Positions 1,689 through 46,355 of a stretch of DNA of 53,756 nucleotides are shown here, piece by piece; positions within the stretch are counted from its first letter, which is position 1, and each line of letters starts with the position of its first letter. This stretch comes from an uncultured Erysipelotrichaceae bacterium. Lineage in GTDB: Bacteria; Bacillota_I; Bacilli_A; RF39; UBA660. The translations under genes and the position numbers were made by a program. The stretch covers positions 1-53,756 of the forward strand of contig CACZQD010000066.1 of NCBI GenBank assembly GCA_902783215.1. Direction: 5' to 3'. The notes below the pieces were generated by a model. That model saw only the letters and a program-made list of their open reading frames with translations, ran no database searches and was not told the DNA's origin.

Positions 1689-1749
1689 GTTCTTTTTATT
1701 GATTATTTGCATTTATTATGGTATTATTTATAACGGAAGAAGTGATAGT

Positions 1750-3165
1750 ATGAAAACACCTGATTTAAAGGAAGCGAGAAAAAGAACAAATAAAATAGTA
1801 GAAACACGAGAATATGTAAAAAATGAGAATCTATCTAATGTTGGTAAAGATAAAAAATACTATATTAAAACATATGGATGTCAAATGAATGTTCATGATA
1901 GTGAAAATATAAAAGCCTTATTAGAAGATATGAGTTTTGAAGAAACTGATGATTTTGAAAAAGCAGATTTAATCCTTTTAAATACTTGTGCGATAAGAGA
2001 AAATGCTCATAATAAAGTATTTGGCTTTTTAGGCCGTGTTAAACATTTGAAAGAGACAAAACCAAATATTATTACAGGAATATGTGGATGTATGGCTCAA
2101 GAGAAGTCAGTTGTTGATGAAATTAAAAATAAATATAAATGGGTTGACATTGTTTTTGGGACACACAATATTGATCGATTGCCAGATATTTTAAATACTA
2201 GTTTAAAAAATAGCTGTCAAAATATTGATGTTGAAAGTATTGAAGGAGATATTGTTGAGAATATTCCTGTAAAACGTGATTCTAAATATAAGGCATGGGT
2301 TAATATAATGTATGGATGTGATAAGTTTTGTACTTATTGTATTGTTCCTTATACCCGTGGTAAACAACGTAGTCGTAAACTTATCGACATTGTTAATGAA
2401 GTAAAAGATTTAGTAGATAAAGGATATTTAGAAGTAACTTTATTAGGGCAAAATGTTAATGCATATGGTAAAGATTTAAATGCTAATTATAAAATGGGTG
2501 ATTTACTTGAACAAGTTGCTTTAACAGGTATAAAAAGAGTTCGTTTTGTTACTAGTCATCCTTGGGATTTTGATGATGAAATGATTGATGTAATTGCTAA
2601 ATATGATAATATTATGCCATATATTCATCTTCCTTTACAAAGCGGTTCTGATCGCATTTTAAAATTAATGGGAAGAAGATATACAAAAGAAAAATATCTA
2701 GATTTATTTAATAAACTAAAGAAAAAAATTCCCAATGTATCAATTACAACTGATATCATTGTAGGATTTCCAGGTGAAACAGAATCTGATTTTCAAGATA
2801 CATTAGATGTTGTAAAGAAGTGCCAATTTGATTCTGCATTTACCTTTATATTCTCACCTCGTATTGGAACGCCTGCGGCTAAAATGAAAGATAATATTTC
2901 TTTAAAAGAAAAAGAACAGAGATTATATAAGTTAAATGAATTGGTGAATAAATATGCCAATATAAATAATCAAAAGTATTTAAATAAAATAGTTCCAGTT
3001 TTAATTGAAGGAGAAAGTGATAAAGAAGGAATGCTTATGGGTTATACTGATACAATGAAATTGGTAAATGTAAAAGCTGATAAAAAATATATTGGTAAGA
3101 TAGTAAATGTTTTAATAACTGATATCAAAACATGGAGTTTAAATGGTGAAATTACAACTATTTAA
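1750..3165 (+). CDS. miaB: tRNA-2-methylthio-N6-dimethylallyladenosine synthase (radical SAM methylthiotransferase)
   Basis: N-terminal YGCQMN motif, radical-SAM CDKFCTYC cluster, C-terminal TRAM-like domain. I chose the ATG at 1750 (MKTPDLKE); the upstream extension from 1699 is hydrophobic junk. Confidence 0.9.
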   Translation: MKTPDLKEARKRTNKIVETREYVKNENLSNVGKDKKYYIKTYGCQMNVHDSENIKALLEDMSFEETDDFEKADLILLNTCAIRENAHNKVFGFLGRVKHLKETKPNIITGICGCMAQEKSVVDEIKNKYKWVDIVFGTHNIDRLPDILNTSLKNSCQNIDVESIEGDIVENIPVKRDSKYKAWVNIMYGCDKFCTYCIVPYTRGKQRSRKLIDIVNEVKDLVDKGYLEVTLLGQNVNAYGKDLNANYKMGDLLEQVALTGIKRVRFVTSHPWDFDDEMIDVIAKYDNIMPYIHLPLQSGSDRILKLMGRRYTKEKYLDLFNKLKKKIPNVSITTDIIVGFPGETESDFQDTLDVVKKCQFDSAFTFIFSPRIGTPAAKMKDNISLKEKEQRLYKLNELVNKYANINNQKYLNKIVPVLIEGESDKEGMLMGYTDTMKLVNVKADKKYIGKIVNVLITDIKTWSLNGEITTI

Positions 3166-3231: not shown

Positions 3232-4746
3232 ATGAAATGTGAAAAATGTGGTAATGATATTGCTGAAGGACAAGTTGTGTGTTTGATATGTGGTGCAGAA
3301 GTGCCTAAAAAAAAGAAAAAACCAGAAGAAAAAACAGATGAAAATGGTAAGAATGAAACAACTAGTGATCAAAAACCTAAACGTGTACATGTGAAAAAAG
3401 ATCATACTAGTTTAATTATTGTACTATGCTTTTTTTTGACAATAATTCTTGTCGCAATTTTAAGTTGTTTATTTTATTATAAAGTATTTGTTACTCCTAA
3501 GACAATTTTTATGAATTCGATAGATACTTTATATGATGAAGCAACATTGCCTATTTCAGAACTTCGTAAAAATGGAAAATATAATATTAAATATTCAACT
3601 AATAAATCTGTAAATAGTAATGATGAAATTATGAATTTGTTAAGCAAAGTAGCTTTTTTTACTGATATGACAATGGATTATACAAACAGTGAATTTGCTG
3701 GTGATGTATCTTTCCAATATGATAACAACAGTGTATTTAGTAGTAATATTTATGGCAAAAAGAAAAATGTATATGTTTTAGATAATAAAATAAGTAATTA
3801 TGTTAAAATGAAGAATAAATATAGTGATTATTTTAGTTCAGATAGTAAAAATATTAGTGCGTACATAACAGTTATTAAAGAATTAAAGAATGCTTTACGA
3901 GTAGCGCTTAAAGAGAGCTATTTTAAATCTTATCAGGAACTAACAACCGTTAATGGTATAGATATGGAAGTTACGAAAAATGAGATAATTATTAATAATG
4001 ATAACATAAAAACCATTGAACATGATTTAGTTAAATATTTATCTAAATCAAAGAAATATATATCTTCTATGGCTAAATTGCAATCAAAAAAGGAACAAAA
4101 AGTAAAGAAAAAATTGGATAAAACACTGGAAGGATTAAAACAGAAAAAAACAACAGTTAAAATAGATACAATGACTTTTGATATATATACTAAAGGATTT
4201 AAAAATGGTTTTGTTAAGTTTTCTTTAAAACAAGGATCAGATTTAAAAGAAGTTCTTGTGTTTACTAAAAATGAACAATCTGAATATATTATCAAATTAA
4301 ACATTAACAACAAATATTTAGATGTCAATGTTAAAAAGACACAACTTCCAGAAAAAACAAGTTATCTTATTAATTTAACAAATGGTTTAGATAGTACGCA
4401 AATAAGTATAGAATACTCTTTTAGACATGATAAAAAAGAGATTGATTCAAATATTGATAATACAATTGATTATGAGACAGTTGATAAATCTTTTAAAGAT
4501 AAGTTAGTACAAGATTTAATTAATCAAAATGGAAAAGATAGTTTTAATAGTGATAAACAAAAAGTTATTAATTGGTTTAAGGAAACTATTGAATTATTTA
4601 ATCCTACTGTTAATGTTGTTTATGATGAAGAGGAAAGTAATGTTGAACAGACAAATAATAATGATTCTGATTCAGAAAACAATTATACTAATCCTTCTAA
4701 TCAAGGATCAATTAATGGATTAGGTGATGAAACTATTAATCAATAA
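3232..4746 (+). CDS. Zinc-ribbon membrane protein of unknown function
   Basis: N-terminal CxxC...CxxC (MKCEKCG...CLICG), a Lys-rich linker, one TM helix (IIVLCFFLTIILVAILSCLFYY), then a large extracytoplasmic domain. RBS AGGTGA sits before the ATG at 3232. Confidence 0.6.
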   Translation: MKCEKCGNDIAEGQVVCLICGAEVPKKKKKPEEKTDENGKNETTSDQKPKRVHVKKDHTSLIIVLCFFLTIILVAILSCLFYYKVFVTPKTIFMNSIDTLYDEATLPISELRKNGKYNIKYSTNKSVNSNDEIMNLLSKVAFFTDMTMDYTNSEFAGDVSFQYDNNSVFSSNIYGKKKNVYVLDNKISNYVKMKNKYSDYFSSDSKNISAYITVIKELKNALRVALKESYFKSYQELTTVNGIDMEVTKNEIIINNDNIKTIEHDLVKYLSKSKKYISSMAKLQSKKEQKVKKKLDKTLEGLKQKKTTVKIDTMTFDIYTKGFKNGFVKFSLKQGSDLKEVLVFTKNEQSEYIIKLNINNKYLDVNVKKTQLPEKTSYLINLTNGLDSTQISIEYSFRHDKKEIDSNIDNTIDYETVDKSFKDKLVQDLINQNGKDSFNSDKQKVINWFKETIELFNPTVNVVYDEEESNVEQTNNNDSDSENNYTNPSNQGSINGLGDETINQ

Positions 4747-4748
4747 AG

Positions 4749-4777
4749 AACTTCAAAGAAAACTTGAAGTTTTTTAT
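4749..4777 (+). terminator. Rho-independent terminator after the zinc-ribbon gene
   Basis: 8-bp stem aacttcaa/ttgaagtt, 7-nt loop, then a T-run. Confidence 0.7.
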
Positions 4778-4828
4778 TGTGCATTAGCATTTGATCAGAC
4801 CGTTATTTGTGAAAAATAGCAAATTTTG

Positions 4829-4857
4829 TTGTGTAATAACGAATATTTTGTTATAAT
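4829..4857 (+). promoter_or_regulatory. Putative sigma-A promoter of the phosphonate cluster
   Basis: TTGTGT, 17 nt, TATAAT, with an extended -10 TG (tgtTATAAT). It lies about 55 nt upstream of the GTG start at 4910. Confidence 0.45.
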
Positions 4858-4909
4858 GTATATAGGTGATATATAATTACACAATAGTTGTGTCTTAAGG
4901 GGGCCATTT

Positions 4910-6049
4910 GTGAAGTATTTGTTATTAAGGTTTTTTAAATTTATATTAAAAATAGTTTATTTCTTTTTTAAATTGTTACCAACTAATACAAAAAAAGTTG
5001 TTTTTATTAGCAGACAACAAAATGTTCCAAGTTTAGATTTTAAACTATTAAGTAGAGATATTAAATCAATTGATAGTAGTTATCAAGTGGTCTTTTTGTG
5101 TAAGAAAATGAAAACAAATAAACAATATTTAATAAAATATTGTTTCCATTTAATAAGACAAATGTATCATTTAGCAACATCTAAAGTTTGCGTAGTTGAT
5201 TCATATTGTATTTGTGTTAGTGTTTTAAAACATAAAAAAAGCTTAACTATTATTCAAATATGGCATGCTATAGCTACAGTAAAGAAATTTGGTTATCAAA
5301 CTTTAAGCAAAAAATATGGTCGAAATCAAAAGACAGCTAAGATATTAAATATGCACAACAATTATGACTTTGTGATTTCAGGATCAACTAGTATGATACC
5401 GGTGTTTGCTGAAACATTTAATGTATCTTCAGAATGCGTAAAACCTATTGGTACACCAAGAATTGATTATCTAATAAATAATAATCGTCAAATAATGAAA
5501 AAGGTTAAAACAAAATATCCTGAGTTAAATAAAAAGAAGGTTATTTTATATGCGCCAACTTTTCGTAAAAAAGAAAATTTAAGCTTTGATAAAATAATTG
5601 ATACTGTTGATTTTGATAAATATAATTTAATTATCAAGTCACATCCAGTAAAGAAAGAAAAAGTATATGATTCCAGGGTATATAAATGTCATGAATTTTC
5701 TACTATGGAATTACTAACCATAGCAGATTATGTTATAACTGATTATTCAGCAATTAGTATTGAGGCAGCTATTTTGAATAAGCCTGTATTTTTCTATATT
5801 TATGATTATGAAAAATATATAAAAAGCAATGGATTAAACATTGATTTAAAAAGAGAAATGAAAGGTTGCTGCTATAAAAAGTTTAACTCATTGTACCAAA
5901 AGATTAATGTTGGAAAATATGATTATGAACAATTAAAAAAATTTAAAGACAAATATGTATCTCACCAACAAGGTAATAGTGGCTTAATATTAGCTAATTA
6001 TATTGTTAATGGTAAATGGACAGTTGGAAAGGAAGATGAAAATGAGTAA
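4910..6049 (+). CDS. TagB/TagF-family CDP-glycerol glycerophosphotransferase-like enzyme
   Basis: Family-typical motifs IQIWHAIATVKKFGYQ and YAPTFR. GTG start preceded by RBS AAGGGGG. The 3' end overlaps the next gene. Confidence 0.8.
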   Translation: MKYLLLRFFKFILKIVYFFFKLLPTNTKKVVFISRQQNVPSLDFKLLSRDIKSIDSSYQVVFLCKKMKTNKQYLIKYCFHLIRQMYHLATSKVCVVDSYCICVSVLKHKKSLTIIQIWHAIATVKKFGYQTLSKKYGRNQKTAKILNMHNNYDFVISGSTSMIPVFAETFNVSSECVKPIGTPRIDYLINNNRQIMKKVKTKYPELNKKKVILYAPTFRKKENLSFDKIIDTVDFDKYNLIIKSHPVKKEKVYDSRVYKCHEFSTMELLTIADYVITDYSAISIEAAILNKPVFFYIYDYEKYIKSNGLNIDLKREMKGCCYKKFNSLYQKINVGKYDYEQLKKFKDKYVSHQQGNSGLILANYIVNGKWTVGKEDENE

Positions 6050-7349
6050 AAAAGTATATATTGCAATGTCTGCAGATGTTATTCATCAAGGACATATTAA
6101 TGTTATTGAAGAAGGAGCAAAATATGGAGATGTAATTATTGGATTGTTAACTGATGAGGCAATTGCTACATATAAAAGAGTTCCTTTATTAGACTATGAA
6201 AGTCGTAAACAAGTTTTTAAAAATATAAAGAATGTAGTAGATGTAGTTAAACAAAGCACATTAGAATATACAGAAAATTTAGAAGCAATCAAACCAGATT
6301 ATGTAGTACATGGAGATGATTGGCAAAAAGGCATTCAAAGTGTTGTAAGACAAAAAGTAATTGATAAATTAAAAGAGTGGGGAGGACAATTAATAGAAGT
6401 TCCATATACTAAAGATGTATCAAGTACAGATTTAGAAAAACAATATCGTATGTTAACGAATACACCTGATCATCGCCGTAGTAAATTAAAAAGACTTTTG
6501 CACTTAAAACCATATATAAGTGTAATGGAAGCATCCAATGGTCTCACAGGTTTAATTGTTGAAAATGCCAGTGTCGAAGACGATAAAAAAGGTATAAAAA
6601 AAGAATTTGATGCTATGTGGGTAAGTAGCTTATGTGATTCCACGTTCAAAGGTAAACCAGATATTGAATTAGTTGATTTAACTAGTAGAATTAACACTAT
6701 TAATGAGATTATGGAAGTTACAACAAAACCAATTATTTTAGATGGTGATACCGGAGGAAAAATTGAACATTTTATATATAATGTTAAAACATTAGAACGT
6801 TTAGGGGTATCAGCTATTATTATCGAAGATAAAACGGGATTAAAGAAGAATTCTTTATTTGGTACTGATGTTAAACAAACACTTGATGATCCAGATAATT
6901 TTGCTGCAAAAATTAGAGCAGGTAAACAAGCACTAGCTACAAGAGATTTTTTAATTTTTGCTCGTTTAGAAAGTTTAATTGCTGGTATGGGAATTGATGA
7001 TGCTCTTGCAAGAGCAAAAAAATATATTGAAGCTGGCGCAGATGGAATTATGATTCATAGTAAAGAAAAAAGTGGTAAAGAAATTAAAGATTTTTTAAAA
7101 AAATTCCGCAAAAAATATACTGATATTCCAGTAATAGTTGTTCCAACTGCATATAATGAATTTACAGAAGAAGAATTAAATAAATGGGGTGCAAATATAA
7201 TCATTCATGCAAATCATTTGCTTAGAAGCGCATATCCTGCTATGATGAAAACAGCTAAATCCATTTTAAAAAATGGACGTAGTAAAGAAGCAGATAAATA
7301 CTGTATGTCAATAAAAGAAATATTAACGCTTATTCCTGGAGGAAAATAA
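6042..7349 (+). CDS. ppm: Bifunctional TagD-like (HxGH) cytidylyltransferase / phosphoenolpyruvate mutase
   Basis: The N-terminal ~130 aa carry HQGH, GDDW and VSST motifs, as in glycerol-3-phosphate cytidylyltransferase. The C-terminal ICL/PEP-mutase fold carries the PEP-mutase-diagnostic EDK-x5-NS motif (EDKTGLKKNS). The ATG at 6042 overlaps the upstream stop. Confidence 0.9.
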   Translation: MSKKVYIAMSADVIHQGHINVIEEGAKYGDVIIGLLTDEAIATYKRVPLLDYESRKQVFKNIKNVVDVVKQSTLEYTENLEAIKPDYVVHGDDWQKGIQSVVRQKVIDKLKEWGGQLIEVPYTKDVSSTDLEKQYRMLTNTPDHRRSKLKRLLHLKPYISVMEASNGLTGLIVENASVEDDKKGIKKEFDAMWVSSLCDSTFKGKPDIELVDLTSRINTINEIMEVTTKPIILDGDTGGKIEHFIYNVKTLERLGVSAIIIEDKTGLKKNSLFGTDVKQTLDDPDNFAAKIRAGKQALATRDFLIFARLESLIAGMGIDDALARAKKYIEAGADGIMIHSKEKSGKEIKDFLKKFRKKYTDIPVIVVPTAYNEFTEEELNKWGANIIIHANHLLRSAYPAMMKTAKSILKNGRSKEADKYCMSIKEILTLIPGGK

Positions 7350-7350
7350 T

Positions 7351-8460
7351 ATGATAAATACAAAAAAATTTTATGATTATTTAATCAAAAAAGAGTTGGA
7401 TTTTTTTACAGGAGTACCAGATTCGTTGCTTAAAAATTTATGCTCTTGTATTAAAGAAAATACTGATTCAAAACATAATATTATTGCAGCTAATGAGGGA
7501 AATGCAATTGGTTTAGCTTCAGGATATCATATTTCATCTGGTAAATTTGGTGTTGTTTATATGCAAAATTCTGGAATTGGTAATACAGTTAATCCATTAC
7601 TTTCTTTAGCAGATGAAGAAGTATATAGTATTCCTATGTTACTTATTGTTGGATGGCGAGGAGAACCTGGTATTAAAGATGAACCTCAGCACGTAAAGCA
7701 AGGCAAAGTAACTATTGATTTATTTAAGACAATGGGGATTGAATGTTTAGTTTTAGATGATAATTACGAAAAACAACTAGATTATTGCTATAGCTATATG
7801 AAAGAGAATAATAAACCAATTGTTTTAGTAGTTCATAAAGGAACATTTAGTGAATATGATAGTTCTAAAACTAGTAATTCTTATGATTTAACACGTGAAG
7901 AATCATTAGAAGTAATTATGAACAGTATAAATAAAGATGATTTTATTGTGTCAACTACTGGAAAAACTTCAAGAGAAATATTTGAACTTCGTGAAAAAAG
8001 AAAAGAAGGACATTCTAATGACTTTTTAACAGTAGGTTCGATGGGACATACTTCTTCAATTGCATGTGGCATGAGTATAGGAAGTAAGAAGAATATCTAT
8101 TGTATAGATGGTGATGGATCATTCATAATGCATATGGGTTCATTTGCTATAATTCCACAAGTTGCAGATAAAAACTTTAAATATATATTAATTAATAATG
8201 GAGCTCATGAATCGGTTGGAGGACAACCTACAGTTGGATTCAACATTGATGTTGAGAAGATATTAAAAGGTTGTGGTTTTAAAAATGTTTATAAAGCTAC
8301 TACTAAAGAAGAAATAAAAAGAGGTGTTGAAAAGATAAAAGAAGATTCATTACAAGCTTTAGTTATCTATACCAAATTAGGATCACGCAAGGATTTAGGT
8401 CGTCCAACAGTGTCTCCTATTGATAATAAAAAAGCTATGATGAAAAAATTTGGAAATTAG
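7351..8460 (+). CDS. ppd: Phosphonopyruvate decarboxylase (ThDP-dependent)
   Basis: Motifs GVPDSLLK, VYMQNSGIGN, GWRGEPGIKDEPQH and IDGDGSFIMH. The start is 1 nt after the ppm stop. Confidence 0.9.
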   Translation: MINTKKFYDYLIKKELDFFTGVPDSLLKNLCSCIKENTDSKHNIIAANEGNAIGLASGYHISSGKFGVVYMQNSGIGNTVNPLLSLADEEVYSIPMLLIVGWRGEPGIKDEPQHVKQGKVTIDLFKTMGIECLVLDDNYEKQLDYCYSYMKENNKPIVLVVHKGTFSEYDSSKTSNSYDLTREESLEVIMNSINKDDFIVSTTGKTSREIFELREKRKEGHSNDFLTVGSMGHTSSIACGMSIGSKKNIYCIDGDGSFIMHMGSFAIIPQVADKNFKYILINNGAHESVGGQPTVGFNIDVEKILKGCGFKNVYKATTKEEIKRGVEKIKEDSLQALVIYTKLGSRKDLGRPTVSPIDNKKAMMKKFGN

Positions 8461-8469
8461 GTGATTAAA

Positions 8470-9234
8470 ATGAAAGCAATAATATTTAATTCAGGTCTTG
8501 GCAAGAGAATGGGTGAATTTACTAAAACTAATCATAAAAGCATGGTTAAACTATATAATGGAGAAACTATTTTAGAACGTCAAATTAGGATATTAGGCTC
8601 AAATGGAATTAAAGATTTTATTATTACAACAGGACCTTTTAAAAAAAAAAAAAAAAAAACTTGTTCTAAATTTACTGATTGTAATTTTGAATTTGTAAAC
8701 AATTCAATTTATGATAAAACTAATTATATATATTCTATGTTTTTGGCTCAGCACTTATTTAATGATGATAGTTTACTTCTTCATGGAGACTTAGTATTTG
8801 ATGAAGGATTAATTAAAGAAATAATAAATGATGATAACAAATCATTATGTTTAATAAATGAAGAAAAACAATTACCTCAAAAAGACTTTAAGGGAAGAGT
8901 ACAGAATGGTAGATTAAAAGAAGTATCTATCAATATCTTTGATGAGGATTGCTATTGTTTTCAACCACTTTATAAATTATCAAGACAAGATTTAGATAAA
9001 TGGGTTGATAAAGTAAATGAATTTGTAAAAGAAGGTAACACAGGAGTATATGCTGAAAATGCTTTAAATACTATTTTAGATGATATGAATATACGCGCTA
9101 AATCATATGTTAATCATTATATTGATGAAATAGATAATTTAGAAGATTATGAAAGAGTATCACAAGATATTGAAAAATTTGATCAGGGAGTAAGGAGTAA
9201 GGAAGATGCAAAAGTTTATCGAAAAAATATCTGA
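8470..9234 (+). CDS. LicC/PntC-like nucleotidyltransferase (phospho- or phosphono-headgroup cytidylyltransferase)
   Basis: N-terminal MKAIIFNSGLGKRMG NTP-transferase loop. The overall layout resembles S. pneumoniae LicC. The gene contains the A19 tract, which encodes KKKKKK. Confidence 0.75.
   Translation: MKAIIFNSGLGKRMGEFTKTNHKSMVKLYNGETILERQIRILGSNGIKDFIITTGPFKKKKKKTCSKFTDCNFEFVNNSIYDKTNYIYSMFLAQHLFNDDSLLLHGDLVFDEGLIKEIINDDNKSLCLINEEKQLPQKDFKGRVQNGRLKEVSINIFDEDCYCFQPLYKLSRQDLDKWVDKVNEFVKEGNTGVYAENALNTILDDMNIRAKSYVNHYIDEIDNLEDYERVSQDIEKFDQGVRSKEDAKVYRKNI
8641..8659 (+). repeat. Homopolymeric A19 tract inside the LicC-like CDS
   Basis: I counted 19 consecutive A by eye. The next-longest A/T runs I noticed in coding sequence are about 8-9 nt. 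Confidence 0.95.
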
Positions 9235-10294
9235 TTTAAATAAAACTATTAATTTATCACAATACAACAATATTTTAGTTGTATGTGATAAATTTTTATT
9301 AGAATCACCAGTTATAAAATTGTTACAAAGCAGTAATATAAATATTCATTTTTTTACAGATTTTCAAGCCAATCCTAAGTATGAAGAAGTAGTTAAGGGA
9401 ATTAATTTATTCAACAGTAAACAATGTGAATTAATAATAGCTATTGGTGGAGGAAGTTCTATTGATGTAGCTAAATGTATTAAAGCATTTGCTAAATTAG
9501 ATAGTAAAAAAAATTATTTAGAACAAGAAATAATTGATGATAAAACTAATTTAATAGCTATACCAACAACAGCAGGAACTGGTAGTGAATCTACACATTT
9601 TGCCGTTGTTTATTACAACAATAAAAAGTACTCAGTAGCAAGTAATTACATTCTACCTAACTATGTAGTTTTAGATTCACAATTTTTAGTAAGTTTACCA
9701 CTATATCAAAAAAAATCAACCATGCTAGATGCCTTATGTCAAGGTATAGAATCATATTGGAGTGTTAATTCAACTGATGAAAGCAAAAAATATGCAAAAG
9801 AAGCAATTAAACTAGTATTAAAAAACTATGAACAATATATTAAGCAGAATGAATCGGTATATAATGATATCTTAAAAGCAGCAAATTATAGTGGTAGAGC
9901 TATAAATATAAGTAAAACAACCGCACCACATGCTATGAGTTATAAAATAACATCATTGTATGGTATCAGTCATGGACATTCAGTTGCACTTTGTTTGCCA
10001 TTTGTCTGGGAATATATGATACATAATATGAATTTAACTATAGATAAGAGAGGAAAAGAATATCTTAATCAAATATTTAACGATTTAGATAAATTATTTG
10101 AATGCCAAACACATGAACAATCAGTCAATAAATTTAAACAAATATTAAATAAAATTGATATCAATTGTAGTAATATAGTAAAAGAAGATGATTTAAATAT
10201 ATTAACATCTTCTGTAAATGTAGAACGTTTGAGTAATAATCCAGTAAGTTTAAATAAAGAAGAAACCAAGAAAATATATATGAAACTAATGTAA
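9206..10294 (+). CDS. Group III iron-containing alcohol dehydrogenase (candidate phosphonoacetaldehyde reductase)
   Basis: GGGSSIDVAKC motif and His-rich metal-site region (APHAMSY, SHGHSVA). Strong RBS GGAGTAAGGAAG. It overlaps the upstream gene by 29 nt. Confidence 0.75.
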   Translation: MQKFIEKISDLNKTINLSQYNNILVVCDKFLLESPVIKLLQSSNINIHFFTDFQANPKYEEVVKGINLFNSKQCELIIAIGGGSSIDVAKCIKAFAKLDSKKNYLEQEIIDDKTNLIAIPTTAGTGSESTHFAVVYYNNKKYSVASNYILPNYVVLDSQFLVSLPLYQKKSTMLDALCQGIESYWSVNSTDESKKYAKEAIKLVLKNYEQYIKQNESVYNDILKAANYSGRAINISKTTAPHAMSYKITSLYGISHGHSVALCLPFVWEYMIHNMNLTIDKRGKEYLNQIFNDLDKLFECQTHEQSVNKFKQILNKIDINCSNIVKEDDLNILTSSVNVERLSNNPVSLNKEETKKIYMKLM

Positions 10295-10303
10295 TTTTAT
10301 AGG

Positions 10304-13009
10304 GTGGTGTATGTTGTGAAAAAGAAAGTAAAAGTATCTATAATTGTACCAGTATACAATGTAGAAAAATATATAGAACGTTGTTTAATCTCTTTGATTA
10401 ATCAAACATTGGATAGCTATGAAATCATAGTTGTTAATGATGAAAGCCCTGATAATAGTCAACAAATTATAGATACATATGTTAAAAAGTATCCAAATAA
10501 AATAAAATCATATATAAAAAATAATGGTGGGCCCGGGGACGCTAGGAATTATGGTGTTAAGAAAGCTACTGGTGAATATATTGGTTTTGTTGATAGTGAT
10601 GATTGTATTAATGAAAATATGTTTGAATTAATGTACGAAAAAGGCAAAAAAGAAAACTCTGATGTTGTAGTATGTGACTATGCAACCTTTGATGAGGGAT
10701 CAATTCAAAACAAGAATATTTTTAATAATTTAGACAAGTTTCCAAATAACGTTGAAAATGAACCAACTATACTTTTTGATTGTAAACCATATATATGGAA
10801 TAAAATCTATAAAAGAAAGTGGTATGTCAAAAATAACTTTTCTTTTCCAATAAATCAATGGTTTGAAGATGATGCTGTAATCTATAATATTTTATATAGT
10901 GCAAATAAAATATCATCATTAGATGAAGTTTTATATTATTACTATAATACAAATAATTCTTCGATTACAAATACTATAAGCATGAAAATTTTTGATATTT
11001 TTAAAGCTACACAGAGTATTTTTGATTTTTATCAATCACACACAACTAAAAAAGAAGTTTTAGATGTAGCAGAGAGATTATGTCAAATACATATTTTTGT
11101 TCGTCTTAATTTTCTGATAAAAAAATCGACAGATAAGAAGTTAATGATAAAGTTTTATAAAAAAGCAAATAAGTTTTTTAATCAACATTTTCCAAAGTGG
11201 TCCAAGAATCCTTATTATAAACAAGTTTCCAAGAAAAATATATATTTAAGAATTAGACATATTCCTTGGTTAATGTATATCTATTTCTTAACACCAAAAA
11301 AGTTTAAATCATTTGTAAAATTGATTACTAAAAAGAAATCAAGACAAAGAAAAAGAAGTAAGAATTATATAAGTAAGGATAGACTTAGACAACTTCAGTT
11401 AATAGAATTAGATATATTAAAGGAAATAGATAAAGTTTGTAAAGATAATAATATTACATATTATTTGGGTGAAGGAACATTATTAGGCGCAATCAGACAT
11501 AAAGGATTTATACCATGGGATGATGATTTAGATATAGTTATGCCCAGAAAAGATTATATAAAGTTTTTAGAAATAGCAGATAAAAAATTATCATCAAAAT
11601 ATGAATTACTGAATGAACATAAAGATGATAATTATTATTTACCTTTTTCTAAAGTTATATCTTTAGATAAACACGGATTTATTAATAATTTAGATAAATT
11701 TTCAAATAATTACTCTGGACCATATGTTGATATTTTTCCACTGGATTATGTGGATACTATAAATAAAAAGAAAGTGGAAAGAAAATATCGAAAAATTAGA
11801 AAAATTAGGGATATGTTATTATTTAAAGTTGACTATTTTAAACCAAATACTAAAAAGAGAATTTTATATAAAATAGAATCTAACTATTATTCCAACAAAA
11901 AATTATATGATAAATTAAATAAAATAATTATTAATACAGATAGTTCAAATAAATATATGTGTAATTTTGCAAGTTCTTATCATCCAAAGAAACAACTCGT
12001 TCCAAAAGAAGTTTATGGTAAACCAAAATATATTCAATTTGAAGATACTTTGTTTCCTGTTCCTAATGATTCAGACAAATTGTTAACTATAATATATGGA
12101 GATTATATGAAACTTCCTCCAATCCAGCAACGCAAATCAAAGCATGGATTTTATGATGAAGTATCTGCATATAATATTGTGGAAACTAAGAAACAAGAAG
12201 ACGAAGAAATGGATATGTTATTAGAACAAGAAATGAGTCAATTGCACAATATAGAATTAAGTATTTTAAAAGAAATAGATAAGATATGTAAAAAACATAA
12301 AATAAATTATTATTTAGGAGAAGGTTCAATGTTAGGAGCAATAAGACATCATGGATTTATACCTTGGGATGATGATATTGATCTTTTAATGAAACGCAAT
12401 GATTATGAAAAATTTTTGAAGATTGCTCCTAAGGAAATCTCTAAAAATTATGAGATACAACATTCTTCTTTAATTGATAATTATTGGTCACCATTTATAA
12501 AAGTTCGCTATTTAAAAAAATGTAATTTTAAGCAAAAACATATTGAACATTTAACAGATCATAATGGTCCATTAATAGATATTTTTCCGTTGGATAATGT
12601 ACCAAAAAAGAATAGTTTGAAACAATTCATGCAAGCATTTACTATTAAACTTAATAGAGGTATGTTATCATATAAATTGAGACTTCGACAACCAAAAAAA
12701 ATAAAAGGATATATTGTTAAATTCTTATCTAATTTTGTTTCTGTGAATAGAATACATAAAACTTTGAATAAAACATTTATCAAGTATAATAATAAAAATA
12801 ACAAATACATTGTTAATTTAGGAAGTTATTATAGTTATAAGAAGCAAACACATCCTAAAAATTGGTATGGAAAGCCTAGAATAGTTTCGTTTGAAAAAAA
12901 TAAATATCCTATACCAAAAGAAGCAGAAAAAATATTATCAAGTGTTTATGGTAATTATATGGAGTTACCTCCAAAAAATAAAAGAATTATTAAACATCAT
13001 TTTGAATAA
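10304..13009 (+). CDS. Tri-domain family-2 glycosyltransferase + two LicD-type phosphotransferase domains
   Basis: GT2 motif VSIIVPVYN...VVNDESPDNS. Two LicD modules (YYLGEGTLLGAIRHKGFIPWDDDLDI and YYLGEGSMLGAIRHHGFIPWDDDIDL). The start is ambiguous among in-frame GTGs at 10304, 10307 and 10316. Confidence 0.8.
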   Translation: MVYVVKKKVKVSIIVPVYNVEKYIERCLISLINQTLDSYEIIVVNDESPDNSQQIIDTYVKKYPNKIKSYIKNNGGPGDARNYGVKKATGEYIGFVDSDDCINENMFELMYEKGKKENSDVVVCDYATFDEGSIQNKNIFNNLDKFPNNVENEPTILFDCKPYIWNKIYKRKWYVKNNFSFPINQWFEDDAVIYNILYSANKISSLDEVLYYYYNTNNSSITNTISMKIFDIFKATQSIFDFYQSHTTKKEVLDVAERLCQIHIFVRLNFLIKKSTDKKLMIKFYKKANKFFNQHFPKWSKNPYYKQVSKKNIYLRIRHIPWLMYIYFLTPKKFKSFVKLITKKKSRQRKRSKNYISKDRLRQLQLIELDILKEIDKVCKDNNITYYLGEGTLLGAIRHKGFIPWDDDLDIVMPRKDYIKFLEIADKKLSSKYELLNEHKDDNYYLPFSKVISLDKHGFINNLDKFSNNYSGPYVDIFPLDYVDTINKKKVERKYRKIRKIRDMLLFKVDYFKPNTKKRILYKIESNYYSNKKLYDKLNKIIINTDSSNKYMCNFASSYHPKKQLVPKEVYGKPKYIQFEDTLFPVPNDSDKLLTIIYGDYMKLPPIQQRKSKHGFYDEVSAYNIVETKKQEDEEMDMLLEQEMSQLHNIELSILKEIDKICKKHKINYYLGEGSMLGAIRHHGFIPWDDDIDLLMKRNDYEKFLKIAPKEISKNYEIQHSSLIDNYWSPFIKVRYLKKCNFKQKHIEHLTDHNGPLIDIFPLDNVPKKNSLKQFMQAFTIKLNRGMLSYKLRLRQPKKIKGYIVKFLSNFVSVNRIHKTLNKTFIKYNNKNNKYIVNLGSYYSYKKQTHPKNWYGKPRIVSFEKNKYPIPKEAEKILSSVYGNYMELPPKNKRIIKHHFE

Positions 13010-13032
13010 GATTTATTCTTATTCTTTTTTTG
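13004..13032 (+). terminator. Rho-independent terminator closing the phosphonate cluster
   Basis: Stem gaataag/cttattc spans the stop codon and is followed by T8. Confidence 0.65.
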
Positions 13033-13078
13033 AAATCAACTTTTTGGGATATTTGCATACATTAAAATGAGGAGTGAT

Positions 13079-13615
13079 ATGATGGCATCATATAAGGAAA
13101 TTGTTACAAAAGCTATTATCGGTAAAGGTAAAAAATATTTTAAAGATAACTATTCTTTAGAAGTTAATAATAAACCATCTACTATATTAGGGTGTTGGGT
13201 AATAAATCATAATTTTAAAGGATATAAAACAGGTGATAAAATAGGTGTGAATGGTAGTTATGATGTTAATATTTGGTATTCATATGATAATGATTCTAAA
13301 ACTATGGTAGCTAATAAAAAAATAGATTATAGTAATGAATTTTCAGTAAGAATAAGAGAAAACGCAGATTTAAATAGTGATACCGATATTATTGTTCGCC
13401 CTTTAAAACAACCAAGTTGTTCAGGAGTAAATATTGATGGAAATAAAATATCTTTTGATATAGAAAAAGAATTAGGAGTTGAAATAGTAGGGGAAACTAA
13501 AATGAAAATAGCTATTGAAGATGATGAAGATCCTTGGGATGAAATTGAAGATGAAGTTGATAAAAAAATAGAAGAAGATATCGATAATAGTGTTAATGAA
13601 GAGTATATTGATTAA
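13079..13615 (+). CDS. cotE: Spore coat morphogenetic protein CotE homolog
   Basis: Colinear with B. subtilis CotE as I recall it (YKEIVTKAIIGKGKKYF..PSTILGCWVINH..YDVNIWYSY..EIVGETK, plus an acidic C-terminal tail). RBS GAGGAG. Confidence 0.75.
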   Translation: MMASYKEIVTKAIIGKGKKYFKDNYSLEVNNKPSTILGCWVINHNFKGYKTGDKIGVNGSYDVNIWYSYDNDSKTMVANKKIDYSNEFSVRIRENADLNSDTDIIVRPLKQPSCSGVNIDGNKISFDIEKELGVEIVGETKMKIAIEDDEDPWDEIEDEVDKKIEEDIDNSVNEEYID

Positions 13616-13644
13616 TATACTTTTTAATTGTTAACAAAAAAAGG

Positions 13645-13673
13645 TTGACACGTCAAAAAAAATATGATAGAAT
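13645..13673 (+). promoter_or_regulatory. Sigma-A promoter of rpsP
   Basis: TTGACA, 17 nt, TAGAAT, with an extended -10 TG. Confidence 0.6.
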
Positions 13674-13698
13674 TGATTAAAGAAATGGAGGGAAATAC

Positions 13699-13980
13699 AT
13701 GGCTGTAAAATTAAGATTAAAAAGAATGGGAGCAAAAGGTAGACCATTTTATCGTATTGTAGCTGCAGATTCAAGAAGTCCAAGAGATGGTAAATTTATT
13801 GAGAAAATTGGTTATTATAACCCAACTGAAGATCCAGCAGTAACTAAAATTGATGAAGAATTAGCAATGAAATGGTTACGTAATGGTGCTATTCCAACAG
13901 ATACAGTTAGAAATTTATTTAGTAAAGAAGGAATTATGAAAAAATTCCATGAAGAAAAAATGAAGAAAGCTGGTGAGTAA
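13699..13980 (+). CDS. rpsP: 30S ribosomal protein S16
   Basis: [42 protein letters not shown] is canonical S16. Confidence 0.95.
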
Positions 13981-14334: not shown

Positions 14335-16572
14335 GTGAAAAAATTACATTATTTATTAATAGTATTCGCATTATTTTTAGTATGTGGTATTAATGTAAAA
14401 GCAGCAAGTAAAACAATAAGCAATGGTACATATACAATTTCAAGCGCAATACATAATGGTTATGTACTAGATGTAACAGGCGGAACTATGAAAAATCGTA
14501 CTAATATTCAGCTTTATAATGGGTTAAATAGTAAATCTCAACAATGGAAAGTAACTTATTTGGGAAGTGGATATTATAGTATCGTTAGTGCCAAAAATAC
14601 TTCTTACGCACTCGATTTTGCTGGAACAAAGAAGAAAAATGGTACAAATATTCAACTATGGAAATACAAAAAAACAAACAAATCACAGCATTGGATAATC
14701 AAAGATGCAGGGGATGGATATTATTATATAATAGCTAGAAACACAGGATTATATGCATCAGTAAAAGGAAGACAAGCTGTTAATAAATCTAATATTCATG
14801 CTTGGACTGGTTATAGTGGAAAAGCTCAAAAATTTGTTTTCTCACCGGTTGTGAAGGGAACAAAAACAATTTCAGATGGTACATATGTTATATCATCAAA
14901 ACTATCAAATAGTAAAGTAGTTGAGTTTGAAGGAAATAAGCCTAAAAACTGTGCTAATGTTCAATTGAACCAATTTACAAATGGAATTAACCAACATTGG
15001 TATGTAAGTTATTTAGGAAATGGATATTATAGTATTAAAAATTTATATATTGATGATTATTCGTTAGATGTAGCTGGAATAGGAAAAACAAAAAAGACTA
15101 ATGTTCAGCTATATAAATCAAACGGTTATGATGGTCAACAATTTGTAATTCAAAGTGCAGGAAATGGTTATTATAAAATAATTGCAAAGAATAGTGGACT
15201 AGCTATTGATATTGCTGGAGCAAAATCAGCTAATGGTACAAATATTCAAACTTGGACAAACTTTAATACAAATGGACAATTATTTAAATTTACTAAAGCA
15301 ACATATATTTCAGCACCGGAGGTTGCAATTGATTATGATGATGATAATGGAGATGAACCAACACGATATGTTATTTCTTATAGCTATTTTGGCGAAGAAG
15401 AAGATTATGATGGTGTAGAAATATATGGCTCTTCTGATGGTAATAATTTCTCAAAGATTAATAATAATGGGGAAAAAAGAATATATGCTGATGTAAATGA
15501 TAAAGCTATGTTTTTCAAAGTAAGATTATATAAAAATACTTATAATGGAAAAGCATATAGTGATTTTTCTAATGTGGAAGGAATAAACTTATTAGAGGCA
15601 AAATTATTGACTCATAAAATTGATGAAAATGACGAAAATGTTACCTATAATATTGTAATAGATGTTCCTAGTATTGCTTTTTTTCATGACTTTGTTGAAG
15701 ATAAGGATCCTTTATTAGAAATAGAGAAATTATCTACTGATACTGGGACTTGGGAACACTATGCTACAGAAAATGGTTATCAAAAGACAATGACTATTCC
15801 AAAAAACATGAGTTGGATTGATTCTTTTGATTCATATTATAGAATGAGAATTGTTTATGAGGAAAATGGTGTTCAAAAATATAGTGATTATGTAGAATTT
15901 AGTTTATATAGTATTTTGATTACTGAACCATCATTTGATATGAATGTTGATACACAGAATAATGAAGATGGAACTGCTGATTATACATTTTCAGCACCTA
16001 AAGATTTTGAAAATGTCAATTACATGATATTGTATGAATTGGATGAAAATAATGACATTATAAATACAGTTTATGAAGGCAAAGAATTAAGTTACACATT
16101 GCATGTTGAAGATGATATGAATAAACGTTATCAAATGTATCTATATAATAGAGAAGATGGAGAAGATGGAGAAGATAGCTATTCTATAGAACTATTAAAA
16201 GTTTCAAGTATTTATGAAGTAGATTACCGTTATCCTACAGTAAAAATGTTTAATTTTATAGTTGATAATGACGAAGAAATGGGACAATATTATTCTTTTA
16301 ATATAAAAGGATTAAGCAATATGCCTTTGGAAGTAACTCATGCTGAACTATTTGCATTAAATGTAAATGATGAATCTGAGTATTCATTGGATACTTTTAT
16401 GAATCTAAATGATCTTAATGATTTTGTAGATATTGATTCACCAATACATCGTTATGTAAATGAATATACATTTGAAAATACTAAAATATATAAGCTAGCT
16501 TTAAAACTTTATGATAATAATAATGAAGTTATTGATACTATATATAGTAATGAATTAGATTATAATGAATAA
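14335..16572 (+). CDS. Secreted protein with two ricin-B (beta-trefoil) lectin domains and about four C-terminal beta-sandwich-like modules
   Basis: Signal peptide (LIVFALFLVCGINVKA). Two sets of (QxW)3-type repeats (SQQWKV, SQHWII, AQKFVF; NQHWYV, GQQFVI, GQLFKF). The repeated C-terminal modules end in YSD-like motifs. No LPXTG. Confidence 0.75.
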   Translation: MKKLHYLLIVFALFLVCGINVKAASKTISNGTYTISSAIHNGYVLDVTGGTMKNRTNIQLYNGLNSKSQQWKVTYLGSGYYSIVSAKNTSYALDFAGTKKKNGTNIQLWKYKKTNKSQHWIIKDAGDGYYYIIARNTGLYASVKGRQAVNKSNIHAWTGYSGKAQKFVFSPVVKGTKTISDGTYVISSKLSNSKVVEFEGNKPKNCANVQLNQFTNGINQHWYVSYLGNGYYSIKNLYIDDYSLDVAGIGKTKKTNVQLYKSNGYDGQQFVIQSAGNGYYKIIAKNSGLAIDIAGAKSANGTNIQTWTNFNTNGQLFKFTKATYISAPEVAIDYDDDNGDEPTRYVISYSYFGEEEDYDGVEIYGSSDGNNFSKINNNGEKRIYADVNDKAMFFKVRLYKNTYNGKAYSDFSNVEGINLLEAKLLTHKIDENDENVTYNIVIDVPSIAFFHDFVEDKDPLLEIEKLSTDTGTWEHYATENGYQKTMTIPKNMSWIDSFDSYYRMRIVYEENGVQKYSDYVEFSLYSILITEPSFDMNVDTQNNEDGTADYTFSAPKDFENVNYMILYELDENNDIINTVYEGKELSYTLHVEDDMNKRYQMYLYNREDGEDGEDSYSIELLKVSSIYEVDYRYPTVKMFNFIVDNDEEMGQYYSFNIKGLSNMPLEVTHAELFALNVNDESEYSLDTFMNLNDLNDFVDIDSPIHRYVNEYTFENTKIYKLALKLYDNNNEVIDTIYSNELDYNE

Positions 16573-44303: not shown

Positions 44304-46355
44304 TTGAAAAGAAGTATAAAAAACATTATTATGATTTTAATAATAGCCATAATTATTGGTTCTATGGTATTTACCATGAACTATGCCAAAAATAATATTA
44401 AAGTACAAAGTAATGAACAACAAAGTATGAGTAATAATGGCCCACCTGATATGAACAATAATCAATCGTCAACTGATAATAGTTCGTCTAATGGTGAAAC
44501 TGATAGTAATAATTCAAAAAATAATCAGAAAAAAACAAATGAAGGCTCTAGCGATACATCCAGCTCATCAGATAATAATCAAATGAACAGTAATACTAAT
44601 GGACAACCACCGGCAAAGCCTGATGAAAATTCAAGCAATACATCCAGCTCATCAGATAATAATCAAATGAACAGTAATACTAATGAACAACCACCGGCAA
44701 AGCCTGATGAAAATTCAAGCAATACATCCAGCTCATCAGATAATAATCAAATGAATAGTAATACTAATGGACAACCACCGGCAAAACCTGATGGAAATTC
44801 AAGTGATACATCAAACTCGTCAGATAATTCAAGTGATAATCAACCACAAATACCTAGTAATGATGGCAATATGATAAGTGATAGTCAAAATAATAGTGTT
44901 TCTAGTGGTAATTTAACATATGGTTATTATATAGTATTTGGTGTAGAATCATTTATTCTAGCTATATTGTTAATGTATTTAATATTATCTAAATTTAATA
45001 AAAAAACATTTAAAGAAACATTCAAAAGCAAAGATAAAATGATTATTAACTGTTTAGCTATTATAATTCTTACATCCGGATTTACTTGCTTAGACAGTAA
45101 AATTACAAAAGAATGTTTTATACAAAATAATGGTAAACAAGTAGAAATGAATAAAACAAGTGATAATACTGTATCAGTAAATGCTAGTGGAACTAAAGAA
45201 ATAAATGGTAAAAGTGAAACAGTAAATGAAGATATTGATGCATCTGATTCAGATAAAAGTGCTATTGTAGTAAAAAATAAAGGTAATGCTACAATAAAAT
45301 ATGCAGCTATAACTAAATCTAGTGGAGATTCTTCAAATACCGAAAACTCTGAGTTTTATGGAGTTAATTCTGGAATACTTGTTACTAAAAATTCTAAAGC
45401 CACAATAAAAAATACTACAATAAAAACTAGTGCTAAAGGTAGTAATGCCGTATTTGCAACAGGTGAAAATTCTAAAATATATGTAAGTGATACAACAATT
45501 GAAACAACTGGGGAATCTTCATCAAGAGGATTAGATGCTACATATGGTGGTTATATTGAAGCTGATAATGTAAAAATAACTACTAAAGGAGGATCTTGTG
45601 CAACACTAGCTACAGATCGTGGTGAAGGAACGGTTATTGCCAAAAATTCTACATTAGAAACCAATGGCAGTGGTTCACCGGTTATATATTCAACAGGAGA
45701 TATTCAAATAAGTAATACTAAAGGAATAGCAAATGGTTCACAAATGGTAGTTGTTGAAGGAAAAAATAGTGCAACAATTACCAATTCTCAATTAGAAGCA
45801 TCAGGTAAAGGTAATAGAGGAGATACAGATCAATCTGGTATTATGATATATCAATCTATGAGTGGTGATGCTAGTGAAGGAACAGGAACATTTACAGCAA
45901 AGAATTCTACTTTACAAATATCTGAAGATTCTGACTACTATAAATCTGCTCCAATGTTTTTTATAACAAATACCAAAGCATTAATTAATTTAGAAAAAAC
46001 AAAATTAAAATATGGAAGTAATATTTTACTAAGTATCAAAGGAACAAGTGAGTGGGGTAATGCTAATAATAATGGAGGCGATACTACACTCAATGCCACT
46101 AATCAAGATTTAAAAGGAAATATTGAAATAGATAAAATATCCACACTTACAATGAATCTTAAAAAGTCAATATATAAAGGAACCATAAATGGTGATAATA
46201 GCGCAAAAGAAGTAATTTTTAAATTAGATAAGAATAGTAAAATAACACTTACAGGTGATTCTTATATAACTAATCTAGAAGATGCTGATACATCATATAG
46301 TAATATTGATTTTAATGGATATAAATTATATGTTAATGGTAAAGCTATTAATTAA
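44304..46355 (+). CDS. Membrane protein with a low-complexity tandem-repeat region and a C-terminal beta-helix-like Ser/Thr/Gly/Asn-rich domain
   Basis: TTG start after RBS AAAGGGA. N-terminal TM helix, 3 x 28-aa repeats, two further TM segments, then ~400 aa of repetitive xxTIxNSxxxTxG-type strands. Confidence 0.6.
   Translation: MKRSIKNIIMILIIAIIIGSMVFTMNYAKNNIKVQSNEQQSMSNNGPPDMNNNQSSTDNSSSNGETDSNNSKNNQKKTNEGSSDTSSSSDNNQMNSNTNGQPPAKPDENSSNTSSSSDNNQMNSNTNEQPPAKPDENSSNTSSSSDNNQMNSNTNGQPPAKPDGNSSDTSNSSDNSSDNQPQIPSNDGNMISDSQNNSVSSGNLTYGYYIVFGVESFILAILLMYLILSKFNKKTFKETFKSKDKMIINCLAIIILTSGFTCLDSKITKECFIQNNGKQVEMNKTSDNTVSVNASGTKEINGKSETVNEDIDASDSDKSAIVVKNKGNATIKYAAITKSSGDSSNTENSEFYGVNSGILVTKNSKATIKNTTIKTSAKGSNAVFATGENSKIYVSDTTIETTGESSSRGLDATYGGYIEADNVKITTKGGSCATLATDRGEGTVIAKNSTLETNGSGSPVIYSTGDIQISNTKGIANGSQMVVVEGKNSATITNSQLEASGKGNRGDTDQSGIMIYQSMSGDASEGTGTFTAKNSTLQISEDSDYYKSAPMFFITNTKALINLEKTKLKYGSNILLSIKGTSEWGNANNNGGDTTLNATNQDLKGNIEIDKISTLTMNLKKSIYKGTINGDNSAKEVIFKLDKNSKITLTGDSYITNLEDADTSYSNIDFNGYKLYVNGKAIN
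44554..44805 (+). repeat. Three near-identical 84-bp tandem repeats (plus a degenerate fourth unit) within the CDS
   Basis: The unit atacatccagctcatcagataataatcaaatgaacagtaatactaatgg/aacaaccaccggcaaagcctgatgaaaattcaagca starts at 44554, 44638 and 44722. It encodes TSSSSDNNQMNSNTNGQPPAKPDENSSN. Confidence 0.9.

Follow-up and report, generated by a model that had tools for sequence, protein, structure and literature searches.

A pure A19 tract in a PntC/LicC-type cytidylyltransferase gene of an uncultured Erysipelotrichaceae bacterium: a candidate phase-variation switch in a phosphonate operon

We analysed a stretch of 53,756 bp from an uncultured Erysipelotrichaceae bacterium (GenBank contig CACZQD010000066.1; 25.1% G/C), called the window in the following, which carries a long adenine homopolymer in a phosphonate operon. 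The tract consists of exactly 19 uninterrupted adenines at positions 8641–8659 of the forward strand (A19), as seen by direct reading of the sequence and in a run-length table, and it lies inside the gene for a cytidylyltransferase of the PntC/LicC type. A preliminary description of this DNA had proposed the homopolymer, said to encode KKKKKK within a helix of a LicC-like enzyme, as a candidate slipped-strand switch for a phosphonate decoration. Position, encoded residues and rank as the longest homopolymer of the window all proved correct; next in length come one A9 and sixteen runs of 8. The tract is read as TTT (AAA)x6 ACT, i.e. F57, K58–K63 and T64, with the last adenine as the first base of the T64 codon; it is in frame with the open reading frame (ORF) 8461/8470 to 9234 and sits at 23% of the gene. 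In simulations of other tract lengths, loss of one adenine (A18) gave a product of 75 aa with the tail LVLNLLIVILNL and gain of one adenine (A20) a product of 66 aa with the tail NLF, both ended by TAA, instead of the full-length 254 aa, in agreement with the truncation at about 65–80 aa predicted beforehand; three-base changes (A16, A22) keep the reading frame. The site thus shows two of the features of contingency loci, a pure repeat inside a coding region and an early frameshift stop upon a change of one unit. An AlphaFold2 model (predicted local distance difference test, pLDDT, 91.2) has a helix at residues 58–65 that spans the tract and, together with the corresponding KEQ(I/L)E segment of the homologues, confirms the helix placement.

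The ORF opens at GTG 8461, with the likely start at ATG 8470, 5 nt past a ribosome-binding site (RBS). Pfam assigns both NTP_transf_3 (PF12804) and NTP_transferase (PF00483) above the cut-offs. With a profile built from 32 homologues, the matches in the Protein Data Bank (PDB) include LicC of Streptococcus pneumoniae (1jyk, E = 5e-18) and the fusion of PntC with a 2-aminoethylphosphonate (AEP) transaminase, PntC-AEPT, of Treponema denticola (6pd1, E = 3.6e-14). Foldseek, run on the AlphaFold2 model, ranks PntC-AEPT first (6pd2, TMq 0.80) and LicC second (TMq 0.75). The N-terminal nucleotide-binding loop GxGxR is retained as G9-L-G11-K-R13, as are other invariant residues of the catalytic family. 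Sequence, fold and linkage to a phosphoenolpyruvate (PEP) mutase (Ppm), a phosphonopyruvate decarboxylase (Ppd) and a LicD-type transferase together place the enzyme in the PntC/LicC family, in line with the LicC-like identity suggested earlier. The T. denticola enzyme (PDB 6pd1/6pd2; PMC6697681) shares the PF12804 fold and the Ppm/Ppd/LicD-type linkage and is the best structural match, but is only ~23% identical to the window enzyme and has no homopolymer. It moreover forms a fusion with an AEP transaminase and has 2-aminoethylphosphonate as its preferred substrate, whereas the partner in the window, an Fe-dependent alcohol dehydrogenase (ADH), implies hydroxyethylphosphonate as the probable substrate.

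The features of the locus are collected in Table 1. The phosphonate context assumed in the preliminary description was borne out: TagF-like, Ppm, Ppd, PntC-like, ADH and GT2-LicD2 genes form a tight operon, and the same Ppm-Ppd-PntC-LicD arrangement is found in orthologous loci such as L005. The proposed translational coupling to the downstream genes stood in part. The ADH gene does overlap the cytidylyltransferase gene, but it carries a strong Shine-Dalgarno (SD) sequence of its own (GGAGTAAGGAGTAAGGA at 9187–9203, ahead of ATG 9206), and the GT2-LicD gene has no overlap; its ORF opens at GTG 10304, with the likely start at GTG 10316 behind the RBS AGGGTGGTG, ~22 nt past the ADH stop. Upstream, a terminator-like hairpin (4750–4756/4764–4770) with a T run closes the preceding gene, and the promoter-like site of Table 1 lies downstream of this hairpin. 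The search for terminator-like sites within 4600–13800, including the inside of the operon, found none, which also rules out a terminator formed by the T19 of the minus strand. As for the chemistry, Fe-ADHs of the PhpC type convert phosphonoacetaldehyde to 2-hydroxyethylphosphonate (HEP) (PMC8942020). The common phosphonate-activating enzymes are nucleotidyltransferases of PF12804 and PF01467, and the fusion of PF01467 to Ppm, known as the Fom1 type, cytidylylates HEP (PMC6697681). Judging from gene content, the operon most likely produces a CMP-activated phosphonate that is moved by the LicD domains to a wall glycopolymer, and the decoration is probably of the 2-hydroxyethylphosphonate type, because the Fe-ADH adjoins and an aminotransferase is absent. 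Two unlike nucleotidyltransferases, PF01467-Ppm at 6042–7349 and PF12804 at 8470–9234, occur in this one operon, and the same pair is present in L005. With this second candidate activating enzyme, the OFF phenotype of the PntC-like gene is uncertain and need not be loss of the phosphonate.

Table 1. Features of the phosphonate operon and of the A19 tract (positions in the window)
Feature	Position	Strand	Basis or remark
Promoter-like TTGTTA-18-TATAAT upstream of the operon	4848..4877	+	Consensus match and sequence reading only
TagF-like CDP-glycerol glycerophosphotransferase, first gene of the operon	4910..6049	+	PF04464, E = 1.7e-62
Cytidylyltransferase-like domain (PF01467, Fom1 type) fused to PEP mutase (Ppm)	6042..7349	+	Pfam; ATG 6042 overlaps the TagF-like stop
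Phosphonopyruvate decarboxylase (Ppd, thiamine pyrophosphate enzyme)	7351..8460	+	Pfam; starts 1 nt past the Ppm end
Shine-Dalgarno AGGTGA, 5 nt ahead of ATG 8470	8459..8464	+	Sequence reading
PntC/LicC-type (PF12804) cytidylyltransferase, 254 aa, tract at codons 58–64	8470..9234	+	Pfam, profile and structure match
A19 tract	8641..8659	+	Run-length table; Tandem Repeats Finder period 1, 19 copies
Base separating A19 from A6-C-A12	8647..8647	+	A in the window (AAA, Lys60), C in L081 (CAA, Gln60)
TAA stop after gain of one A (A20)	8667..8669	+	Simulated tract lengths
TAA stop after loss of one A (A18)	8696..8698	+	Simulated tract lengths
Fe-dependent alcohol dehydrogenase (ADH), PhpC-like	9206..10294	+	Pfam; 29-nt overlap with the LicC-like gene
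GT2 glycosyltransferase with two LicD phosphotransferase domains	10316..13009	+	Pfam

Under a first-order Markov model only 0.0018 A-runs of at least 19 nt are expected in the window. Lysine codons were counted in 52 long ORFs that together span 93% of the window; AAA accounts for 84% of these codons. Sixteen runs of at least three lysines were found. Not one of the 15 others is made up of AAA only, compared to ~8.7 expected under independence; each of them is interrupted by AAG (e.g. AAA AAA AAG AAA AAA at 3307), and the K6 at 8641 is the sole uninterrupted run. In 183 kb of related loci with low G/C content, runs of 8, 9, 10, 11 and 12 nt occur 102, 6, 2, 1 and 1 times, respectively. This steep drop, together with the AAG-interrupted lysine runs, indicates that long A runs are selected against in the clade; A19 is therefore a true exception and no compositional accident. 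The same numbers bear on a rather unlikely alternative, in which the tract is an incidental by-product without adaptive switching, brought about either by strong A/T pressure with the run growing from its borders or by selection at the protein level for a polybasic helix, and persists as a mutational burden, being tolerated or not yet old enough for removal. A genome of 25% G/C with so high a share of AAA would favour such an origin, but the AAG codons in all 15 other lysine runs indicate that long A runs are effectively selected against here.

The protein search over 5.8 billion clusters returned 2435 homologues, and alignments of 32 and 121 sequences were made. The cluster of the window protein has only two members, the next-best homologue being 71% identical; a GTDB scan added 80 orthologous loci, none of them closer than 71%. 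In the 121-sequence alignment the helix at the tract has the same length as in the window and reads K/E-E/D-Q-L/I-K/E-x, typically KEQ(I/L)E. Gln occupies position 60 in 120 of the 121 clusters, with Lys in the window alone; L, I or F is found at position 61 in 119 and E or D at position 59 in 114 of them, while Lys is already frequent among the homologues at positions 58, 62 and 63. Throughout the 119 other clusters there is no run of four or more lysines anywhere, and the tract is absent in all of them. Nor is the tract present at the site in the orthologous DNAs of 75 GTDB species representatives (L003, for instance, reads AAAGAGCAAATAGAAAGTGTTTGT), in which the longest homopolymer of any orthologous gene is 9. 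At 127 positions the 119 other clusters are class-conserved to at least 95%, and the window departs from them at four (59, 60, 61 and 163); the first three are consecutive and each change adds A. Clustered in this way, the departures point to a directional process at the tract, which could be selection for the run or its extension at the borders by misalignment-type mutation, a known mechanism.

The second member of the window's 90% cluster (P0121) is encoded by a 2134-bp contig from the European Nucleotide Archive (ERZ1029115, k87_84948034; here L081). It is collinear with window positions 8128–10261 at 96.0% identity (83 mismatches in 2134 bp), and its site reads TTTT AAAAAA C AAAAAAAAAAAA CTTG, i.e. 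A6-C-A12 encoding KKQKKK, again with 19 nt in all. Position 8647 is the sole difference between the two sequences from 8542 to 8690. Collinearity across the site rules out a chimeric join at the tract, and the comparison of the two sequences identifies a long A-rich tract as a genuine feature of this lineage. The interruption by the conserved Gln codon, as in A6-C-A12, is the ancestral state, from which A19 is derived by one C-to-A change (Q60K), unless the consensus is in error at this base. What is new here is that A19 lies one substitution from the interrupted allele of its nearest relative, and that this substitution hits an otherwise invariant Gln. Q60K sharpens the idea that the switch was 'armed' by a lost interruption, yet it also raises the alternatives of an artefact or a recent mutation.

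The former would mean that base calling, consensus building or assembly altered the site, the true tract being A6-C-A12 or of another length, with the lone C lost in consensus or polishing. Homopolymers are error-prone on all sequencing platforms, the metagenome-assembled contig has been seen once, and a sequence that differs from L081 by one base in the tract, at equal total length, with identical flanks over 8542–8690 and at the residue Gln60, is what an error of this kind could leave behind. We nevertheless consider an artefact improbable: at 4% divergence real single-base differences are to be expected, the exact in-frame length is unlike the usual homopolymer errors of long reads, and a C-to-A change in the consensus requires that the majority of reads be wrong. 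Even if it were true, an A12 would remain, which in length ranks first among the runs in 817 kb of related loci.

The equal tract length of both sequences is a weak argument against instability because no homologue tolerates an indel in the helix, and three-base indels that keep the frame are probably selected against. For the time since window and L081 diverged, less than one synonymous hit is expected in the six AAA codons (proportion of synonymous differences, pS, 0.085–0.27); therefore it cannot be inferred that AAG interruptions are excluded from the tract, and their absence does not speak against a by-product. Between window and L081 the gene shows 12 synonymous and two non-synonymous changes (Q60K and V76I; dN/dS 0.038) and is thus under purifying selection. 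A decaying pseudogene is ruled out by this ratio and the retained invariant residues, and such tight constraint on the rest of the gene does not fit well with an origin of the tract as a mere by-product. The divergence between the two sequences over 8128–10261 is a mosaic, with a pS of 0.27 at the 3' end of ppd as opposed to 0.085 in the LicC-like gene; differences bunch at 8493–8541 and 8691–8706, and a dense patch in the Fe-ADH gene (9554–9622) replaces YYNN by YFEG and IAI by VAV. Such a pattern suggests that strains have recombined.

To the reading that the tract is slippage-prone and switches the gene stochastically ON and OFF while also lowering its expression, we assign roughly even odds (a probability of about 0.5). 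According to this reading, the KEQ(I/L)E helix would first have been turned into KKQKKK (A6-C-A12) by substitutions towards A, before the single C-to-A change fused A6 and A12 into A19. Slipped-strand mispairing at replication would then cause frequent gain or loss of one A, truncating the enzyme ahead of most of its fold, and a second slip would restore the frame. A population would then contain both cells that have the activation step and cells that lack it, in a heritable and reversible mixture, and hence with altered surface decoration. The indel rate in mononucleotide runs climbs steeply with length; the DNA of a pure A19 should accordingly be very unstable, much more than that of A6-C-A12. 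Slippage of RNA polymerase and sliding of ribosomes on the AAA codons would lower the output of ON alleles and make OFF alleles leaky, so that the device would act as a dimmer rather than as a toggle. Since ~510–540 nt would stay untranslated, a polar effect on the downstream genes ADH and GT2-LicD is possible, but it is not required, given the ADH gene's own SD sequence.

Surface-decoration genes are classic targets of repeat switches. In Haemophilus influenzae, phase variation of lic1 is based on tetranucleotide CAAT repeats within the coding region of the kinase gene licA. This phosphocholine system shares with the window the logic of a LicC-type cytidylyltransferase and a LicD transferase acting on a surface glycan (Lic pathway in PMC6697681), but differs in that its repeat is a tetranucleotide in licA, whereas the window has a homopolymer in the licC-type gene and a probable phosphonate decoration; no homology of the repeats is implied. 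With respect to the repeat itself, precedent poly-A tracts in Vibrio cholerae and Listeria monocytogenes suffice with 7–9 nt. The A8 tract of wbeL and the A9 tract of manA switch the O antigen of V. cholerae O1 (PMC3441752); like A19, they are poly-A tracts in the 5' part of a surface-glycan gene, where loss of one base truncates the product. They are in frame in most sequenced strains, and their proposed role is escape from phage or immunity. In V. cholerae, however, switching, reversion (manA) and phenotype have been demonstrated for tracts of 8–9 nt, whereas the candidate switch of the window has 19 nt and belongs to an uncultured spore-former of low G/C content with a probable phosphonate decoration. 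The poly(A) tract of inlA in L. monocytogenes, which varies ~1000-fold above the point-mutation rate (PMC2831843), likewise is located close to the 5' terminus of a Firmicute gene for a surface factor and causes truncation by frameshift, but it is much shorter and belongs to a surface protein, not to an enzyme that tailors a glycopolymer. Overall, the site looks like a simple-sequence-repeat contingency locus in a surface-decoration pathway, with the V. cholerae poly-A loci and, at the pathway level, lic1 as its closest precedents. Switching is plausible but unproven, and any adaptive phase variation is hypothetical.

Long A runs in genes are also known from other contexts. In the insect endosymbionts Buchnera and Blochmannia, fixed frameshifts in poly(A) tracts are often rescued by transcriptional slippage. 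These tracts, and the poly(A) tracks that act as attenuators (PMC4552401, PMC4363877), resemble that of the window in being long A runs in genes; the genomes are A/T-rich and slippage is expected. Unlike in the endosymbionts, the DNA is in frame here, and runs of this kind are avoided elsewhere in the genome. A19 might act as a non-heritable attenuator of expression, in which slipping RNA polymerases and ribosomes that pause or slide lower PntC relative to Ppm and Ppd, with DNA switching being secondary. Iterated AAA codons do cause ribosome sliding, reduced protein output and termination at nearby out-of-frame stops in E. coli (PMC4363877), poly(A) tracks dampen translation (PMC4552401), long A/T runs make bacterial RNA polymerase slip (PMC6260861), and stops are close by in both alternative frames, as such a model requires. 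Still, we regard attenuation as the chief function as very improbable. An attenuator would be expected as an A-rich track of at least ~11 bases conserved in orthologues, but the track is common only to the window and its nearest relative, being missing from the 119 homologue clusters and the 75 orthologous loci; moreover, 19 nt are far beyond what attenuation needs and make instability of the DNA unavoidable. Further candidates were rejected. A dual-coding or programmed recoding site is ruled out by the alternative frames, which stop after 3 or 12 codons, and by the absence of the tract in 119 clusters. Promoter-like sites occur at chance level (78 found, 74.5 expected), which excludes an internal promoter or UP element, and Rfam detects no known structured RNA other than two tRNAs elsewhere in the window.

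Several observations weigh against a switch. The two assemblies that represent the lineage are both in frame with the same total of 19 nt, and no length variant was seen, so that the comparison of tract lengths across strains and metagenomes proposed earlier has yielded one pure and one interrupted tract of equal length. The notion of a candidate switch stands as far as tract length is concerned, which is far above the slippage threshold, but not with respect to length polymorphism. It had been argued beforehand that a stable interrupted mix of lysine codons in homologues would refute a switch; this is touched in part, as the tract of the nearest relative is interrupted, though by the CAA of a conserved Gln rather than by AAG. 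Searching JGI metagenomes gave 0 matches for the flanks with a variable gap between them and 0 relatives in a protein-guided scan. Among the best 120 of the 2435 protein matches there were no split or truncated products of the same species and nothing between the 100% cluster and 71%; the exact window protein is not on record in the contig index. With a lineage sample of two, missing variants are weak evidence either way. Given Gln60 in 120 of 121 clusters, the A19 allele may be a miscall or a recent, possibly damaging mutation, and the Ppm-fused cytidylyltransferase domain may buffer the phenotype.

Three unusual substitutions suffice for the tract (E59K and I/L61K for A6-C-A12, plus Q60K for A19), K being common at 58, 62 and 63, and A/T-biased drift could have produced them, as the by-product explanation would have it; that they fall on consecutive conserved residues while 123 of 124 other conserved positions are kept is less easily reconciled with it. 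Two results from related species point in the same direction as drift. First, long homopolymers are not enriched in the orthologous phosphonate operons of 80 other species (p ~0.67; 3 of 14 runs of at least 9 and 1 of 4 runs of at least 10 lie in operon-homologous DNA). Second, A9–A10 runs are kept at one V-KKK-D site in four related species, 57 nt past the LicC-like domain, in genes in which LicC-like and Fe-ADH parts appear to be fused; runs of ~10 can therefore persist without obvious switching. Individual A runs in orthologous operons comprise an in-frame A11 in ppd of L005 (5269–5279; S-E-KKK-P), an A10 in a LicC-ADH or LicC fusion ORF of L028 (3181–3190), an A10 in a LicC-like fusion ORF of 968 aa of L029 (7966–7975) and further in-frame runs in L021 (5214), L051 (6771) and L058 (3866).

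If the activation step is indeed switched by A19, the decoration would be a target of fluctuating selection by phage, antibody or lectin. Cell-surface phosphonates are widespread and functionally obscure. With stochastic switching at the tract, phosphonate decoration would become the first C-P surface modification described as phase-variable, and likely a device for phage or immune evasion in commensal Firmicutes. Homopolymer phase variation, for which mycoplasmas and Gram-negative pathogens are the best-known cases, would also be extended to uncultured commensals that form spores. The A6-C-A12 and A19 alleles form a natural experiment on how an interruption controls the mutability of a tract. 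For the annotation of metagenome-assembled genomes (MAGs) the tract calls for caution, as a length error of one base would mimic a pseudogene.

Relatives of the organism come from rabbit and sheep gut. A G10 run was found in a related 25%-G/C Bacilli MAG from rabbit gut (L009), at 11738–11747 within the 17-nt spacer of a TTGACA-N17-TATAAT promoter (11726–11754) with 12/12 consensus matches. Its neighbours are the GT2-LicD gene of the orthologous phosphonate operon on one side and the next glycosyltransferase gene, starting at 11789, on the other, and by its layout the site resembles a promoter-spacer phase switch. One may speculate, with considerable doubt, that uncultured low-G/C gut spore-formers vary the phosphonate of their wall glycopolymers by repeat contingency loci, A19 being a switch newly armed by a lost interruption and the G10 of L009 a second, independent design in the clade.

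The operon is flanked by miaB (1699–3165) and cotE (13067–13615; outer spore coat protein E, E = 7e-50), the latter of which shows that the organism forms spores. The genes behind cotE are mutS-mutL in Bacillus subtilis. No ORF of MutS or MutL size is present in the window, where rpsP comes after cotE; the presence of mismatch repair in the genome bears on the stability of the tract. Just downstream of the operon region, at 14335–16572, we found a secreted-looking protein of 745 aa with several ricin-type beta-trefoil lectin domains. Finally, an 84-bp tandem repeat (3.3 copies, 94% matches) at 44550–44828 lies inside a 683-aa ORF without Pfam match (44304–46355); its unit is rich in Ser, Asn and Pro, and the product may be a length-variable surface protein.

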